Positions 1-6,748 of a stretch of 6,748 bases of DNA are shown in pieces. This stretch comes from Opitutales bacterium (GTDB lineage: Bacteria > Verrucomicrobiota > Verrucomicrobiia > Opitutales > UBA9783). The notes beneath the pieces were generated by a model. That model searched no databases. It worked only from the letters and a program-made list of their open reading frames with translations, and was not told where the DNA came from. Location of the stretch: assembly GCA_024407725.1 (NCBI GenBank), contig JAKSVZ010000024.1:1-6748 (forward strand), written 5' to 3'. The translations under genes and the position numbers were made by a program. Each line of letters begins with the position of its first letter. Positions within the stretch are counted from its first letter, which is position 1.

Positions 1-540
<540 letters not shown>

Positions 541-669
541 AAATTATTAACTAATTTCTCAAGAGATATCCTTTTGCTCTTTTACTAATGTTTTACTTCA
601 TTGCTGAAGTTATCGTATTTTACTACGTTAAAGTTTTTATTCGGTTTCCCGAACCTATGCACAAAATAA

Positions 670-682
670 ATTTCAAAGAACA
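670..682 (-). promoter_or_regulatory. Candidate boxA-like antitermination motif in the rRNA leader
   Basis: The minus strand reads TGTTCTTTGAAAT. This resembles rRNA-leader boxA (E. coli type TGCTCTTTAACAA; a TGTTCTTTGAAA-type variant is what I recall from Firmicutes). It lies between the candidate promoter and the 16S 5' end. It sits almost at the predicted start site, so either the motif or the promoter call may be wrong. Confidence 0.3.
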
Positions 683-688
683 CTCTCA

Positions 689-716
689 CAATTACCTATA
701 AACAAATAACCGTCAA
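689..716 (-). promoter_or_regulatory. Candidate sigma70-type promoter for the rRNA operon
   Basis: The minus strand reads TTGACG (716..711), then 16 nt, then TAATTG (694..689). A long A/T tract (about 717..760) lies upstream and could act as an UP element. The -10 is weak (G at position 6). Motif inspection only. Confidence 0.25.
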
Positions 717-777
717 GTGTTTTTTGAAAAATTTTTTGAAAAAATAAAAATTTTATCCCAAACGGAACTAAACCTGC

Positions 778-1896
778 TTAGTTTTGAGCTTCAGCAGCGA
801 CCAATTCATCAAAAGTATCGCGATGAGGATACGCATCCTGAATCTTAAATGCCCGCAGGTTTTCGACACAACGCGCTTCGTACGCATCATAATTTTCTTT
901 GGTCAACCGATGCTTATCGTGCTCAATACACCACGCCATATAACGGTTGATATCATGATGATAGTGCGCCGGGTCAAAATAATTAGCTAAATTATTAACA
1001 AAAGCGCAATCATACCAACCGTAGATTTTTACATTTGGAAGATCAGCGCAAGTAGTTACCAAATGGCGCCAAAAGGTAAAACTGGCTTGTAAAAAATACG
1101 GATGGTGAATTCCCTGAAAAAATCGGCACCATACCCAAGAAACTGGTGTTATAGGTAAAAAGAATTGAACATTCGGATAGCGACGAATCAAACGCAATAA
1201 ACAATCGATATCGCAAAACAAATGGTTATTGGCCAATGAAAATTTAGAAAAATCGGGCAATAAGCGCCGCTGCTTTAATAAATTATCATTCCTTATCCAA
1301 TTTTTACAGGCCTTACTCCTATCGGGAACTATAGTTTTTACCGTAAAATCGTAATCTGAAAAGCAAGCAGTTTTTGTGCATAGTTTTAGGCGATGCATAA
1401 TAACATGGGAAGTCGTCAACCAAACCGCGCTATCAAAGCTGCTAATCAACGGATGTTTTAAACGCTCCCGCATTTCAGGAGATACTGGCGGATTTTTAAA
1501 GAAAGCAAAAGCATCAATCCCCCATAACACGTACTTTATTTTTCCCGACGCCAACGCTTGCTCTGCCCAAAACGCCAACGGCTGCGATTGACCAAGTCCT
1601 AAACAAAGCATCACAGAAGCTTGAGCGCCCATAGCCACATCCACATCTTCAATAGCAAAGCCTGCTGTATGCGAAGAACCTACAATTATTCCATTGTGTT
1701 CGTTAGATTGCACGATATTCCGACGTACTGCGCCAATATAATAAATGTTGCCATTATCAAAAGGGTGCAAATTCGTATTCCACCGCGTTTCGTGAAACAA
1801 ATGATAAGGATCTATCATCCATACCACCAATGGACTAATACCCCCAAAAAGTACTATCAAAAGCAAGAAACATAGGACGTTTCGTCGCGAGCACAT
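778..1896 (-). CDS. Paralog A of an uncharacterised N-terminally membrane-anchored protein family (putative DltD/SGNH-like esterase or acyltransferase)
   Basis: Long minus-strand ORF. The track ORF (778..1926) starts at a TTG. The ATG at 1896 (MCSRRNVL...) aligns with the MNARRN(V/I)L start of paralogs B and C and is preferred. It has a hydrophobic helix right after the start, an IDPYHLFHETRWN block, GSSH, and a C-terminal ~100 aa more than 85-90% identical to B and C (…HLVTTCADLPNVKIYGW…DPAHYHHDINRYMAWCIEHDKHRLT…). No recognisable named family from sequence alone. Confidence 0.8.
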   Translation of the reverse strand: MCSRRNVLCFLLLIVLFGGISPLVVWMIDPYHLFHETRWNTNLHPFDNGNIYYIGAVRRNIVQSNEHNGIIVGSSHTAGFAIEDVDVAMGAQASVMLCLGLGQSQPLAFWAEQALASGKIKYVLWGIDAFAFFKNPPVSPEMRERLKHPLISSFDSAVWLTTSHVIMHRLKLCTKTACFSDYDFTVKTIVPDRSKACKNWIRNDNLLKQRRLLPDFSKFSLANNHLFCDIDCLLRLIRRYPNVQFFLPITPVSWVWCRFFQGIHHPYFLQASFTFWRHLVTTCADLPNVKIYGWYDCAFVNNLANYFDPAHYHHDINRYMAWCIEHDKHRLTKENYDAYEARCVENLRAFKIQDAYPHRDTFDELVAAEAQN

Positions 1897-1967
1897 ATTT
1901 AGACTTAAAAAATAACGAAATTTCAATGATAGATGCTGTCAAACCATATTACATGGCAGATCGCACA
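1897..1967 (-). repeat. Degenerate relic copy of the ftsQ 3' end (duplication footprint) in the B-A spacer
   Basis: aaatttcaatgatagatgctgtcaaaccatattacatggcagatcgcacatcattgctc aligns with 3151..3212 and with the authentic ftsQ 3' end at 4379..4440. It is more diverged than the copy at 3126..3203. Confidence 0.55.
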
Positions 1968-3125
1968 TCATTGCTCCGCCGCGACCAATTCGTCAAACGT
2001 ATCGCGATGTGGATAGGCATTCTGAATCTTAAATGCCCGCAGGTTTTCAACACAGCGCGCTTCGTACGCATCGTAATTTTCGACGGTTAACCGATGCTTA
2101 TCGTGCTCGATGCACCACGCCATATAACGGTTGATATCTGGATGATAATGGTCTACATCGCAAGAATTCGCTAAATTATTAACAAAATCACAGTCATGCC
2201 AACCGTAGATTTTGACATTTGGAAGATCAGCGCAAGTAGTTACCAAGTGACGAGTCCCAAAGAAAAACGCATCATAAATTTGCGTTGGAGATAAAGTGCG
2301 TTGGAGCAACTTAAATATATACCGATATACCGTCCAACAATTGGGCGCTATTACTAAGTGAAATTGAACGGAAGGATAGGTACGTATAATATGCAATAAA
2401 GGTTCCATCCTATTCTTCACGAGTGAGCTCGTCACCGAAGACTCTGTAATACAATAATGCTCAAAATTATGTGCAGCCTTCTGGGTTTCAGCTAATGTTT
2501 TAGGTTGAATCCAGGGAGTGAAGTACTTTTCTCTCTGCGAAAACCAATTATGGATATCATCTACCTGATCCCACGCATGAAATCTTTCATTTTTAGTTAT
2601 CTCCCAATGTCTCGGAATAATATAAAATCCTGGCAAACTACGTAGACACTTTAAATTCCATAAACATAGCCAAGGATGCGCCACATAAGGTTTTACCGCT
2701 TCCAATGCTTCATCCTTTTTACTAAGCGATAACCAACACCAAGGATCCATGAGGATAAAAGCATGTTTCAGATGCCCACTAGCGATGCTACGATTTAACC
2801 ATTCCTGACACATTTCCATGCTTTGATTAGCATTACATAATTTTAACGTTCCTTTAGCGCCTACTGCCTTGGCTAAATCGCTACCTTTAAAATTCATCGA
2901 ATGGGAAGATCCTAATAGAACGCTATCGTAATCGCCTGACTTAAGGTAGGTCTCAATTTGACCTAAATTGAGCAGACTTTGGCTCCCAAACCATAAATTC
3001 TTATTCCACCGCGTTTCGTGAAAGATATGGTAGGGATCGATTGACCATATTATGAGTGCCTCTGCTAACCAAGGAAAAATCAACGCAAACAATAAGAACC
3101 ATAAAACGTTTCGGCGCGCATTCAT
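1968..3125 (-). CDS. Paralog B of the uncharacterised membrane-anchored family (intact, 385 aa)
   Basis: ATG at 3125, TGA at 1968..1970. It has an N-terminal TM helix (VLWFLLFALIFPWLAEALIIW), IDPYHIFHETRWN, GSSH (2901..2912), DVDH (2148..2159) and the conserved C-terminal block. By eye about 60% identical to paralog C over the first ~160 aa and almost identical over the last ~100 aa. Confidence 0.85.
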   Translation of the reverse strand: MNARRNVLWFLLFALIFPWLAEALIIWSIDPYHIFHETRWNKNLWFGSQSLLNLGQIETYLKSGDYDSVLLGSSHSMNFKGSDLAKAVGAKGTLKLCNANQSMEMCQEWLNRSIASGHLKHAFILMDPWCWLSLSKKDEALEAVKPYVAHPWLCLWNLKCLRSLPGFYIIPRHWEITKNERFHAWDQVDDIHNWFSQREKYFTPWIQPKTLAETQKAAHNFEHYCITESSVTSSLVKNRMEPLLHIIRTYPSVQFHLVIAPNCWTVYRYIFKLLQRTLSPTQIYDAFFFGTRHLVTTCADLPNVKIYGWHDCDFVNNLANSCDVDHYHPDINRYMAWCIEHDKHRLTVENYDAYEARCVENLRAFKIQNAYPHRDTFDELVAAEQ

Positions 3126-3203
3126 ACTTACTTAGGCTTTACGAATGATGAAAATTCAATGGTAGGTGCTGTCAAACTCATATTAACGCGACAAGGCTGT
3201 ACG
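3126..3203 (-). repeat. Relic copy of the last ~75 nt of ftsQ (duplication footprint) in the C-B spacer
   Basis: 3108..3163 is identical to 4336..4391 (56 nt, spanning the paralog start codon and the ftsQ stop/C-terminal codons). Similarity continues with substitutions to ~3203 (= ~4431). The reverse translation still reads ...RVNMSLTAPTIEFSSFVKPK*, like the true FtsQ C-terminus, but it has no upstream gene body. Confidence 0.8.
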
Positions 3204-3632
3204 TTATTGCTCAGCAGCAACCAACTCATCGAAGGTATCGCGATGAGGATACGCATCTAGGATCTTAAACGCACGTAGGTTTTCAACACAGCGCGCTTCG
3301 TATGCATCGTAATTTTCTTTGGTTAACCGATGCTTATCGTGCTCAATACACCATACCATATAACGGTTGATATCTGGATGATAATGGTCTACATCGCAAG
3401 AATTCGCTAAATTATTAACAAAATCACAGTCATGCCAACCGTAGATTTTGACATTTGGAAGATCAGCGCAAGTAGTTACCAAGTGACGCCACAAGGTAAA
3501 TAAGTCATCACAATACTGAACTAACGATATTCCCTTTCCACAATCCATTGTGCACACCCTACTATAGGTCGTCCATGCATTAGGCGTTAATAAGATATAA
3601 AACTTGACAGATGGATTTTTCTCGGATGACAC
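3204..3632 (-). CDS. Paralog C, C-terminal fragment (conserved block; probably not an independent gene)
   Basis: The track ORF starts at a GTG (3630..3632) with no evident ribosome-binding context. The frame is open further upstream to 3698. The protein is near-identical to the C-termini of A and B (WRHLVTTCADLPNVKIYGWHDCDFVNNLANSCDVDHYHPDINRYM…DELVAAEQ). Confidence 0.5.
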   Translation of the reverse strand: MSSEKNPSVKFYILLTPNAWTTYSRVCTMDCGKGISLVQYCDDLFTLWRHLVTTCADLPNVKIYGWHDCDFVNNLANSCDVDHYHPDINRYMVWCIEHDKHRLTKENYDAYEARCVENLRAFKILDAYPHRDTFDELVAAEQ

Positions 3633-4353
3633 ACGACATAGTGTCGTTGACTCGTTGACTCGTTGACTCGTTGACTCGTTGAGTCGTTGAATAAGTATTC
3701 AACTTATAAACACTTTGTAAATATTGACAGTGTTTTGCAAAATACCCAAAACTTTGAGAGCAATAAGGAAACCAACTATGAACCTCATTTAAATTATTCC
3801 ATGTCCAAAAATGGCTATTATGTTGGGATACGAACCTATGAGTAATGCAGTAAAATGCAGCCAACGAACATATGGTTTTTAGATTAAATAAACACAAGTA
3901 AGGATGGTTAATATAAGGCTTTGCTGCTTCTAATGAAGAGTCTATACCTGAATCATATAAAAACCGAAGTGCGTCTATCTCGATAAAACAATGTTTTGTT
4001 TTTCCTGTTGCCAAACTTTTTTGCAACCACATCAACTTCATTTGTAGACTTTGTCCCCCATTGCACAACTTCAGCACGCCTTTAGCCCCAACCGCTTTAG
4101 CTAAATCTCTACCTTGAAAGTTCATGCTATACGAAGAACCTACAAGAATACTATCGTAATTATTACTTCTTTTGAGGTAGGTTTCGATTTGACCTATGTT
4201 GATTAAGGGTTGACTACCAAACCACAAATTCTTGTTCCACCGCGTTTCGTGAAAAATATGATACGGGTCAACAATGTAAACCATCAACGGACCAATCGTC
4301 CAAAATAGGAACGTGAAGATAAGAAAATACAGAATGTTTCGGCGCGCATTCAT
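3580..4353 (-). CDS. Paralog C, N-terminal fragment as currently translatable (257 aa; the last ~20 aa are out-of-frame tail)
   Basis: The ATG at 4353 is 2 nt after the ftsQ stop. MNARRNILYFLIFTFLFWTIGPLMVYIVDPYHIFHETRWN and GSSY blocks match paralog B. After the repeat tract the translation (DTMSCVIREKSICQVLYLINA*) has no counterpart in A or B. Confidence 0.7.
   Translation of the reverse strand: MNARRNILYFLIFTFLFWTIGPLMVYIVDPYHIFHETRWNKNLWFGSQPLINIGQIETYLKRSNNYDSILVGSSYSMNFQGRDLAKAVGAKGVLKLCNGGQSLQMKLMWLQKSLATGKTKHCFIEIDALRFLYDSGIDSSLEAAKPYINHPYLCLFNLKTICSLAAFYCITHRFVSQHNSHFWTWNNLNEVHSWFPYCSQSFGYFAKHCQYLQSVYKLNTYSTTQRVNESTSQRVNDTMSCVIREKSICQVLYLINA
3644..3690. repeat. Octanucleotide tandem repeat (TCGTTGAC)n; coding-sense unit GTCAACGA; ~5.9 copies
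   Basis: Read directly from the sequence: TCGTTGAC at 3644-3651, 3652-3659, 3660-3667 and 3668-3675; TCGTTGAG at 3676-3683; TCGTTGA at 3684-3690. The unit length of 8 is not a multiple of 3. Confidence 0.95.
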
Positions 4354-4355
4354 AC

Positions 4356-5165
4356 TTACTTAGGCTTTACGAATGATGAAAATTCAATGGTTGGCGCCGT
4401 CAAACTCATATTAACGCGGCGGACCGTACGCCATTGCTCTGGAGAAAGCGATTTTAACAACATCTGAGTCTTGTTCAATGCTTCCTCTGGGTGATCAATC
4501 GGGAACACCAAAATCCAATTGCCTGCCATGCGCAACTCAATTGTTTGCCATCGTCGCGCCAAATAAGGATCGAAATGCTTTAAAGAAATGGATTTTACCG
4601 ATAAGAAAAGCTCGGGCGCTTGCTGCAAACAACGGATTACCTGGACAATACCTGAAAATCCTACGATGCGCTGCTGTTTAAGGATTGTTTTGGGGATATC
4701 TACCAACAGAACACATTGTTTCAAGGCCTCTGGACCTTGTTGAATGGGCAAGAAAATAGAGCCATCTTCGGCAACGCAACCCCAAGCACGTTTTTTCTTT
4801 TGAATCACGACCATCCTGGCAAAGGGCTTCCGTTCGTTAATACTAACGCGTAAGGTATTCGGAAATTCGCGCACCAACGTAACTGATTCTATCTGGGAAT
4901 ACTGCAAAATCTGCTGTTGCAAATCCGACAAATCAATCGACAGCAAGTTTTGGCCTACTGGCAGTTTAACGTGCGTGCAAAACCAATGCTTATTAATTAC
5001 GCCGTTCGTAGCGTATACTATTTGCCTAAAGGGTTGAATGGCTTTTCGTTGTCCACTCCAAGTAATAATCCCGATAAGGCAGGCAATGATTCCTAAAAGC
5101 GCCCAATAAAGCCGTATGCGCTTACGCTGGTTACCATCAAAAGTCGTATCGTTGTCTGCATTCAT
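4356..5165 (-). CDS. ftsQ: Cell division protein FtsQ (POTRA-domain, single-pass membrane protein)
   Basis: 269 aa. It has a basic N-terminus and one TM helix (LYWALLGIIACLIGIITW), followed by a POTRA-like segment (LLSIDLSDLQQQILQYSQIESVTLVREFPNTLRVSINERKPFA). It sits immediately downstream of ddl, as in dcw clusters, with its start 4 nt after the ddl stop. Confidence 0.8.
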   Translation of the reverse strand: MNADNDTTFDGNQRKRIRLYWALLGIIACLIGIITWSGQRKAIQPFRQIVYATNGVINKHWFCTHVKLPVGQNLLSIDLSDLQQQILQYSQIESVTLVREFPNTLRVSINERKPFARMVVIQKKKRAWGCVAEDGSIFLPIQQGPEALKQCVLLVDIPKTILKQQRIVGFSGIVQVIRCLQQAPELFLSVKSISLKHFDPYLARRWQTIELRMAGNWILVFPIDHPEEALNKTQMLLKSLSPEQWRTVRRVNMSLTAPTIEFSSFVKPK

Positions 5166-5169
5166 GTTT

Positions 5170-6090
5170 TTACGCTTTCAATTGAGCAATTGCTGGCTCT
5201 ACGATGCGCTGAATCAAGGCATCAAACGACATCCCAACTGCAGCTGCGCTTTTGGGAACCAAACTTTGGTCCGTCATTCCAGGAATCGTATTCATTTCCA
5301 AAAACCAAGGCTGATTATTGGCATCTAAAACAAAATCTGCGCGGCCAAAATCTCGGCAATGTGCCACCTTAAAAAACTCAACGCCTATAGCTTGAACGAT
5401 CTGCGCCACTTTATCGCTCAAATCTGCAGGAAAATGATACACACAAGCACCGGCAGTATATTTATTGTGAAAATCGTAAAAGCCTTGTTGTGGGCAAATT
5501 TCACCAACCGCCAACGCTTGTCCTTGCAAAATTCCAACTGTTATTTCGCGTCCATGAACGTAAGGTTCTATCATCCACAATCCTTGTCTAACCGATGACC
5601 AAGCGCTTTGTAATGCGTCGAAATTCGGGCAAATTTGAACCCCCAAGCTGCTTCCTTTGTTTTCGGGTTTTAACACAAATGCGGTTGAGTTTAAGGTTTT
5701 TTCTAACTCAGAATGCGATAATTTCTTCCCTGGAGTGACTGCCACTCCCAATAGCACCGGAAGCCCCTTCTGACGCGCCAACTGCTTACTTTGTAGCTTG
5801 TGCATACAAAGTGAACTGGCTGCCGAATCGCTACCTACATAAACAAACCCTTGCTGTTCCAACAAGGCTTGCAATTGGCCATCCTCACCGAAATCTCCAT
5901 GCATAACAGGGAAAATTACATCGGTGCTTGGATTCAAGCCTGAGGGCAATTGATTCTCCTCCAAACAGATAGCCTGAGTAGGATAATATCGTTTTAGAAC
6001 ATCAATAACCGGTCCTGCCGAATGGATTGAAACTTCTCGCTCTCCACTCTGCCCTCCATAAAGTACTACTATTTTTTTAAAGCAGCTCAT
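5170..6090 (-). CDS. ddl: D-alanine--D-alanine ligase
   Basis: 306 aa with typical Ddl/ATP-grasp motifs: KIVVLYGGQSGEREVS, FPVMHGDFGEDGQLQALLE, VLKPENKGSSLGV, FLEMNTIPGMT. ATG at 6088..6090 overlaps the end of murB by 14 nt. Confidence 0.95.
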   Translation of the reverse strand: MSCFKKIVVLYGGQSGEREVSIHSAGPVIDVLKRYYPTQAICLEENQLPSGLNPSTDVIFPVMHGDFGEDGQLQALLEQQGFVYVGSDSAASSLCMHKLQSKQLARQKGLPVLLGVAVTPGKKLSHSELEKTLNSTAFVLKPENKGSSLGVQICPNFDALQSAWSSVRQGLWMIEPYVHGREITVGILQGQALAVGEICPQQGFYDFHNKYTAGACVYHFPADLSDKVAQIVQAIGVEFFKVAHCRDFGRADFVLDANNQPWFLEMNTIPGMTDQSLVPKSAAAVGMSFDALIQRIVEPAIAQLKA

Positions 6091-6748
6091 GCCATTCTTT
6101 CCCCAACAACTGTACTTCTGGCTCCAACCACACCTGTTTTTGATTATAGACCTGCGATCGAACCGTACGTACTAATTGTACCACATCCATAAAACGCCCT
6201 TCGCCCCCATTGACAACAAAATTAGCATGTTTCGGGGATACGTATAGTGACCCAATCTGCAAACCTTTCAAACCACAGGCATCGATCAATTGACCCGCAG
6301 GAGCAAGTGTTGGATTTTTAAAAAAACAACCCAAGGTATAACCGTTTGGTTGATGCTCCGAACGGCGCTCACGCAACAACAACCGTTGTTGATGAATCCT
6401 GTCGGTTGAATCCACAGAACCGGTTAAAATTGCCGATACCGCCACCCCATTGCGCAGGGTTTCGCATGAACGATAAGCATAGGTTAATTCCGAATGCTGG
6501 GTTGTATGCAATTGTCCGCTGCTATCCACCCAATCGATTTGCTCAACGCGATCCAAAATTCCAATACCCTGTGTCCCCGCATTCATCCTTAAAGCACCAC
6601 CGATGGTACCTGGGATTCCGTCTAAAAACTCGAAGCCACCAACCCCTTCCCGTTCCGCTTCTTCCAAAAACATGGGCAAGGAGCAACCCACGCCCACGCG
6701 ATACCGCCGAATACCTTTAGGCGCTGCATCATCGATCAAGGCACATTG
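6077..6748 (-). CDS. murB: UDP-N-acetylenolpyruvoylglucosamine reductase (MurB), C-terminal ~220 aa; 5' end outside window
   Basis: MurB-type motifs are present: GIPGTIGGALRMNAG, YAYRSC, GCFFKNP, ACGLKGLQIGSLYVSPKHANFVVN. The frame remains open to the window edge, so the Met at 6739 in the ORF track is internal. The FAD-binding N-terminal domain is missing from the window. Confidence 0.9.
   Translation of the reverse strand, partial: QCALIDDAAPKGIRRYRVGVGCSLPMFLEEAEREGVGGFEFLDGIPGTIGGALRMNAGTQGIGILDRVEQIDWVDSSGQLHTTQHSELTYAYRSCETLRNGVAVSAILTGSVDSTDRIHQQRLLLRERRSEHQPNGYTLGCFFKNPTLAPAGQLIDACGLKGLQIGSLYVSPKHANFVVNGGEGRFMDVVQLVRTVRSQVYNQKQVWLEPEVQLLGKEWHELL

Follow-up and report, generated by a model that had tools for sequence, protein, structure and literature searches.

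A candidate octanucleotide frame switch in a probable acyltransferase family of Opitutales, and an A-run lesion in the split paralog that carries it

A gene that is split into two reading frames and has a tandem array of 8-nt units close to the split raises the question of whether the array turns the gene on and off by slipped-strand mispairing. Such a gene is found in a contig of an Opitutales metagenome-assembled genome (MAG; locus tags MJ218_*). The complete contig, 6748 bp long, was analyzed and is referred to here as the window; the minus strand carries all of its genes. In the order of transcription these are murB (6077 to beyond 6748, partial, running off the contig end), ddl (5170..6090) and ftsQ (4356..5165, POTRA_1 domain), all recognized by Pfam, followed by three paralogs of an unannotated protein family, C, B and A, and by the 5' end of a 16S rRNA gene. 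Paralog C (3204..4353), which ftsQ directly precedes, is the split gene. Paralogs B (MJ218_03935, 1968..3125, 385 aa) and A (MJ218_03930, 778..1926) are intact and have no array at the homologous site; the start of A homologous to those of the other copies is probably the ATG at 1896. A preliminary description of this DNA had located the frameshift of paralog C at the repeat and proposed a phase-variation switch.

The spacers preceding paralogs B (3126..3190) and A (1897..1967) share homology with the 3'-terminal ~65 nt of ftsQ (4354..4418): positions 3075..3190 are 84% identical to 4303..4418, and the spacer of A contains the common motif ttcaatgRtaGRtgctgtcaaac. This relationship indicates that the three-gene array arose by tandem duplication of a unit starting inside ftsQ. 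The order murB-ddl-ftsQ-family gene is also present at a related locus, L050, where a single family copy follows ftsQ at the syntenic position. Upstream of ddl, L050 encodes a 700-aa protein (4175..6277) with a faint Mur_ligase_M domain and the MurB domains, suggestive of a murC-murB fusion. At the other end of the window, the first 540 nt of the 16S rRNA gene (1..540; Rfam RF00177, 480 bits) reach the contig end, in the same direction as paralog A and directly downstream of it. The intervening spacer (541..777) is AT-rich and includes a 12-nt tandem repeat, TTTTTTGAAAAA x2, at 720..743.

The repeat of paralog C was characterized with Tandem Repeats Finder (TRF), a shuffle control and three-frame translation. 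TRF reported it as one strong array at 3644..3690, with a period of 8, 5.9 copies, 97% matches and a score of 87; a three-unit pattern matched 4 times, against 0.00 expected from 200 shuffles. Read in the gene sense, the array consists of six units, namely TCAACGAC, four copies of TCAACGAG and again TCAACGAC, the unit of the family being TCAACGAN. All three frames are open across it, and in the N-terminal frame it encodes STTQRVNESTSQRVN. Paralog C thus carries, inside its ORF, a perfect tandem repeat with a unit length not divisible by 3, as contingency loci do. These results bear out the preliminary description as to the coordinates and unit length of the tract, its open frames, the stop of the N-terminal frame at 3580..3582 and the TGA at 3699..3701 that closes the C-terminal frame upstream. 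The effect it had assigned to changes in unit number was reproduced as well: a gain of 8 nt yields an ORF of 1158 nt (385 aa), and a loss of 16 nt one of 377 aa. On its gene-downstream side the tract is abutted by a short inverted repeat, GACAC-N8-GTGTC (3626..3643, noted by eye), of which another paralog of the same MAG, L001, has a 4-bp version.

The two halves of paralog C were then compared with their homologs. The N-terminal ORF (MJ218_03945, 3580..4353) encodes 257 aa comprising a transmembrane anchor and the GSS(Y) nucleophile block; this product lacks the Asn and Asp-x-x-His blocks (N303, D323 and H326). The C-terminal frame is open over 3204..3698, with an ORF from the GTG at 3632, and encodes the conserved last 100 aa with NVKIYGW and DVDHYHPDINRYM. 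With six units in place, the N-terminal frame reads QRVNESTSQRVNDTMSCVIRE where the relatives have NDTILRIIRENPSVKF (L005, and L002 or L007 in the restored frame), NNTILRVIRENPLVKF (L001, restored) or NESILRIVRESPSVNF (L048 and L049). Homology continues past the tract, where paralog C has NDTMSCVIRE and the relatives have NDTILRIIRE, NNTILRVIRE or NESILRIVRE. It is lost only at a run of five A residues (T5 on the plus strand) at 3616..3620, separated from the tract by 23 nt (3621..3643) and located by alignment and by scores against hidden Markov models (HMMs). There, the N-terminal frame drops the family homology and the C-terminal frame picks it up, reading NPSVKFYILLTPNAW past the extra A. 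The run lies within GAGAAAAATCC, which differs by one additional A from GAGAAAATCC in L001, L005 and L007; the DNA alignment of C and L001 has a 1-nt gap at this run, and the relatives compared at the site (L005, L007, L048 and L049) have A4 or AAAG. The persistence of homology in NDTMSCVIRE, together with the extra A, places the homology-defined break at the A5 run and the six units in register. Judged by these alignments, the frame of paralog C is broken by the extra A and not by the repeat number. The preliminary description had N-terminal homology ending right after the tract, which does not hold; its sole interval for the frame change does include the tract, but this interval is wider (3583..3698) and holds the A5 run as well. 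Nor does the length argument, by which C is 8 nt shorter than B, provide an independent check. The flanking anchors are indeed offset by 1228 and 1236 nt, but several indels separate B from C (a third offset is 1231 nt, and the protein alignment is gapped).

Possible repairs were ranked with two family HMMs, A2 and A3, neither of which contains paralog C. Model A2 gave 546.7 bits for A4 with six units, 539.7 for A5 with seven units and 533.1 for A5 with four units; the corresponding scores with A3 were 351.5, 343.6 and 337.4. Changing A5 to A4 gives a clean protein of 382 aa. Gaining one unit or losing two also produces a full ORF, but one in which NDTMSCVIRE becomes the out-of-frame TTLCRVSSEK (~10 aa). 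By this comparison, a change in unit number would compensate for the lesion in paralog C rather than restore the gene, leaving a patch in a conserved helix. Just after the tract, C also has three clustered substitutions relative to L001 that are non-synonymous in either frame and are therefore not decisive. Both halves of the gene are stop-free, with dN/dS values of 0.21 (N-terminal half against L001) and 0.12 (C-terminal part against B), which bears the mark of past purifying selection on both. Paralog C is either decaying, or in use as a compensating variant with one more or two fewer units, or affected by an error at the A5 run.

The case for a switch is better made at the level of the family. 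In a 5.8-billion-protein index, 22 homologs were found, all from Opitutales or Puniceicoccales, and several carry the tract-encoded peptide at the same position. At the DNA level, other members have the octanucleotide at the corresponding codon, with unit numbers of 3, 3.6, 4, 5 and 6. Paralog C has 6 x TCAACGAN. L001 (MJ218_02140), from the same MAG, has five units with TCAACGAA in the interior; L002 and L003, from independent assemblies, have four units and 3.6 x TTCAACGA, respectively. All three are out of frame. L007 (UBA3869) has three units and is likewise out of frame, with another frameshift near gene nt 270-288. C, L002, L003 and L007 have their N-terminal homology in one frame and their C-terminal homology in another. 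In L001, L002 and L003, two open half-genes are separated by the unit number alone: in silico, adding one unit or removing two yields an uninterrupted ORF with no other defect. Some intact members carry altered arrays. L005 (UBA3869) has five copies of a 9-nt unit, GCTCAACGA, and is in frame; the units of L048 and L049, from independent assemblies, are degenerate.

The arrays themselves show signs of turnover. C and L001 match at every position of the 264 nt that immediately precede the tract (100% identity, against ~87% further upstream), and yet their tracts are one unit apart and differ in the interior units as well, indicating that the arrays turned over after the two copies had separated. 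Interior units are homogenized within each array, with G in C, A in L001 and the 9-nt unit in L005. Within 104 kb of DNA from the clade, tandem repeats of at least 3 copies with a TRF score above 40 were found at the family tract site only. Family copies free of the tract include A, B, L004, L050, L051 and L065; the N-terminal half of L065 resembles that of C, which suggests that the tract is confined to some sub-lineages. A scan of metagenome contigs returned only distant relatives, none with the tract, and a scan of viral contigs for the tract returned 13 unrelated repeats, none of them encoding the family. Elsewhere in the gene, the B lineage has a conserved two-copy direct repeat of 8 nt, ATATACCG x2 on the plus strand (2317..2332 in the window, 4791..4806 in L004, 8794..8809 in L050), in frame and in an intact gene each time, which may be due to chance or represent an incipient repeat.

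Altogether, this comparative pattern has the signature of a slipped-strand contingency locus. The comparison of related loci that the preliminary description had called for did reveal different unit numbers among close copies, and its switch is supported for the family, by L001, L002 and L003, though not for paralog C, which is broken at the A5 run. We consider it somewhat better than an even bet (a probability of roughly 55%) that the tract is a slipped-strand frame switch in a sub-lineage of a probable acyltransferase family, with paralog C turned off through its A5 run. The slippage mechanism, its reversibility, selection for switching and the glycan acceptor discussed below are what we infer from these comparisons.

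Family copies also share sequence with each other in a patchwork manner. The genome carries at least six paralogs. Positions 3356..3488 of paralog C are identical to 2120..2252 of B (133 nt, by eye, offset 1236 nt), within a 288-nt direct-repeat family (D1) in which 3201..3488 is 91% identical to 1965..2252 at the same spacing of 1236. The 264-nt block common to C and L001 spans gene nt 408..671 in both, as aligned. These 133-nt and 264-nt blocks are embedded in genes that are otherwise 45-90% identical, and identical blocks inside divergent genes point to gene conversion among paralogs; the 3356..3488 block would be consistent with conversion among conserved 3' ends. L002 is likewise a mosaic: across the gene it resembles L005 (94% identity), but from the C-terminal region onwards its identity to L004 is 98%. 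In L002 (3914..5260) and L004 (6416..7762) the family gene adjoins a phage-like block with ORFs for a terminase large subunit and a portal-like protein, which the two assemblies share at 98% identity. Upstream of the family gene, L002 has an MBOAT gene and L004 has dnaA together with an ORF of 155 aa. Yet another member of the MJ218 MAG, P0012 (MJ218_03760, on an 11.4-kb contig), ends in ADLPNVKKSTVGMIVLLLVI where the family has ADLPNVKIYGWHDC. Its protein sequence, on which this comparison is based, is what a frameshift within the GTCAAAATC A run would produce; this would be the second A-run frameshift in the MAG, due either to real decay or to homopolymer error.

The most serious competitor of the switch is plain decay, in which redundant tract-bearing paralogs are turning into pseudogenes and the tract is a mutational hot spot with no selected role. 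We regard this as unlikely, although several observations fit it. Paralog C has a lesion outside its tract and three clustered non-synonymous changes right behind it, L007 has two frame breaks and P0012 is frameshifted at an A run; with at least six paralogs in the genome, losses would be affordable. Moreover, none of the copies bearing three or more perfect 8-nt units is found in the ON state; all of them are at present out of frame or broken. This last point is less telling than it seems: if states are random thirds, finding four of four copies OFF is only mildly improbable (about 0.2). Decay also sits poorly with L001, L002 and L003, defective in nothing but their unit number, and with the two stop-free halves of C at dN/dS 0.12-0.21. 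Furthermore, the tract has been kept at one site in several lineages and re-homogenized there, including a 9-nt derivative that is in frame. Such retention and re-homogenization are hard to square with a purely deleterious feature.

An assembly or sequencing artefact would make paralog C an intact gene whose true sequence has A4 or another number of units. The contig is metagenome-assembled, the 264 nt common to C and L001 lie beside the tract and could have led to a consensus of mixed reads, and A-run frameshifts occur in two paralogs of this MAG. Nevertheless, we find this explanation improbable. The intact state of paralogs A and B, ftsQ, ddl and murB speaks against indel errors throughout the window; both a sequencing read and the assembly k-mers inferred from the k115/k141 contig names of related loci are longer than the 47-nt tract; and frame-breaking unit numbers recur in independent assemblies. 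Five A residues also make a short run for short-read sequencing to miscount systematically. A chimeric join of C and L001 over the 264-nt identical block was considered separately and leaves the frame analysis unchanged, the upstream parts of the two genes sharing a frame. Finally, the split might be bridged during expression, at the A run, by programmed ribosomal frameshifting or by transcriptional slippage. We reject this as highly improbable in spite of the homopolymer lying exactly at the frame junction, since a +1 shift would be needed and GAA AAA UCC gives the P-site tRNA no re-pairing, transcriptional slippage requires some 7 or more residues in a run, longer than A5, and the relatives encode the junction in a single frame with A4.

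What would be switched was addressed by profile searches and structure prediction. Single-protein and profile searches of Pfam, NCBIfam and PDB returned no sequence match that names the family, apart from a marginal match of one member to ALGX (E 0.008). The family is large, amounting to 2966 clusters at E<=1e-3 in an exhaustive profile search. Across 69 divergent members, no change occurs at D30, P31 or H326, and conservation at G72, S74, N303 and D323 reaches 90% or more; this combination of Ser, Asn and Asp-x-x-His amounts, at the level of sequence, to an SGNH-type pattern. An AlphaFold2 (AF2) model of paralog B based on the 69-sequence alignment (pLDDT 91.7, pTM 0.91) replaced a first model from 18 sequences, which had a pLDDT of 68.5 and weak Foldseek matches. 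In a Foldseek search of the PDB with the later model, ranks 1 to 10 were all DltD (6o93 at E 2.8e-4, 3bma, 7dxm, 6pfx), with E values from 2.8e-4 to 2.8e-2 and probabilities of 0.80-1.00; the TM-scores are low (0.33-0.37) and denote a distant relationship. GDSL/SGNH esterases come next, with target TM-scores of 0.5-0.6. A profile search of PDB sequences returned no DltD and the Pfam DltD model was unmatched; we therefore describe the family as DltD-like, and not as DltD.

In the model, S74 follows strand 68-72, and D323 and H326 follow strand 304-308. The tract encodes the last part of a loop of 12 residues (218-229) together with the first half of helix 230-249, while the residues past the tract form the second half of this helix, leading into core strand 254-259. 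A position at the end of a loop and start of a helix makes length steps of three units (8 aa) plausible; the out-of-frame patch of a compensated paralog C, on the other hand, would be predicted to hit a conserved element.

The genomic neighborhood provides a further clue to function. A gene for an MBOAT protein (PF03062) lies immediately upstream of the family gene at seven of seven loci tested, from Lachnospiraceae, Puniceicoccales, Isosphaeraceae and Opitutales and including L002 of the close clade; the same is true of L049. No MBOAT gene is present in the window, where the three copies follow ftsQ. Glycosyltransferase genes (GT2 and GT4) are frequent neighbors as well. Adjacency to MBOAT and the DltD-like SGNH features argue for an extracytoplasmic acyltransferase that would receive its acyl group from the MBOAT protein. 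The family is thus probably one of membrane-anchored, DltD-like extracytoplasmic glycan acyltransferases.

Several known systems invite comparison. DltD is the partner of the MBOAT protein DltB in the D-alanylation of teichoic acids. The family shares with it an N-terminal membrane anchor, an SGNH-like alpha/beta core, the conserved Ser and Asp-x-x-His, the position of the gene directly 3' of an MBOAT gene (in relatives) and the best structural matches in the PDB. It differs in having no sequence match to Pfam DltD or PDB chains and a TM-score of about 0.35, in occurring in hosts of the Gram-negative type, which have no teichoic acids, and in having no dltA or dltC beside the loci tested; the neighboring MBOAT protein also departs from DltB, scoring 178 bits against TIGR04091, below the 375-bit cut-off. 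In AlgI/AlgJ/AlgX and PatA/PatB, an MBOAT protein and an SGNH O-acetyltransferase act on alginate or peptidoglycan. An MBOAT paired with an SGNH protein encoded by its own gene is the known arrangement in the AlgI/AlgX, PatA/PatB and DltB systems (PMC9558356). Relatives of the window copies have the same two-gene layout, an MBOAT gene followed by one for an extracytoplasmic SGNH-type transferase, and the ftsQ/ddl/murB neighborhood of the window and of L050 is compatible with a wall target. In contrast to AlgI/AlgJ/AlgX and PatA/PatB, to which it has no significant sequence similarity, the family has many paralogs per genome, with near-identical ends and a divergent middle.

Simple sequence repeat (SSR) contingency loci, in turn, mediate phase variation by intragenic slipped-strand mispairing in surface-modification genes of Haemophilus, Neisseria and Campylobacter, and repeat-driven phase variation is so far known mainly from a few pathogen genera. 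The tract resembles these loci in its perfect intragenic units, open in all frames and not divisible by 3, in unit numbers that vary among close copies of the family and toggle the frame, in its target, a probable envelope-glycan modifying enzyme, and in the degenerate or in-frame tracts of stably expressed relatives. It departs from the typical case by its 8-nt unit, a rare length of which a literature search turned up just two mentions in connection with phase variation, by the additional homopolymer lesion in paralog C and a switching deduced from genome comparison, and by a target that belongs to an MBOAT-partner family without a name. A literature search found no description of SSR phase variation in Opitutales or Verrucomicrobiota.

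According to the mechanism we propose, slipped-strand mispairing would change the number of units in the tract. A single 8-nt unit gained or lost would displace the frame by 2 nt, so that one unit number in three would give a full protein with the Asn and Asp-x-x-His blocks, and the others a stump of ~250 aa deprived of the catalytic His and Asp. The full protein would most likely move an acyl group to a glycan of the cell envelope outside the cytoplasm. In paralog C, the change from A4 to A5, 23 nt downstream of an in-register six-unit tract, would have split the gene; it could reopen through a return to A4 (382 aa) or through one unit more (385 aa) or two fewer (377 aa). With at least six paralogs in the MJ218 genome, such switching would make envelope acylation variable. 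A broader interpretation, which we offer tentatively and hold to be less probable than the switch itself, is that host-associated Opitutales possess a cassette-like, recombining multigene family whose octanucleotide-switched members bring about a heritable yet reversible, combinatorial variation in the acylation of envelope glycans with one shared MBOAT protein. Near-identical 5' and 3' ends would recombine while the divergent middle would face the substrate, and the 9-nt array of L005 and the degenerate arrays of L048 and L049 would be 'locked-on' derivatives. If so, no SSR contingency system would have been described before from Verrucomicrobiota, nor one that acts on an MBOAT-partner family.

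Paralog C shows that the obvious repeat need not be the lesion: automated calls of a frameshift at an SSR need a comparison with homologs before phase variability is assigned to a gene. The analysis also gives a first functional handle on an unannotated family that comprises some 3000 clusters (50% identity). Real switching would add an uncultured verrucomicrobial lineage to those with repeat-driven phase variation, and would suggest that these bacteria diversify the acylation of their surface under pressure from phages or the host.
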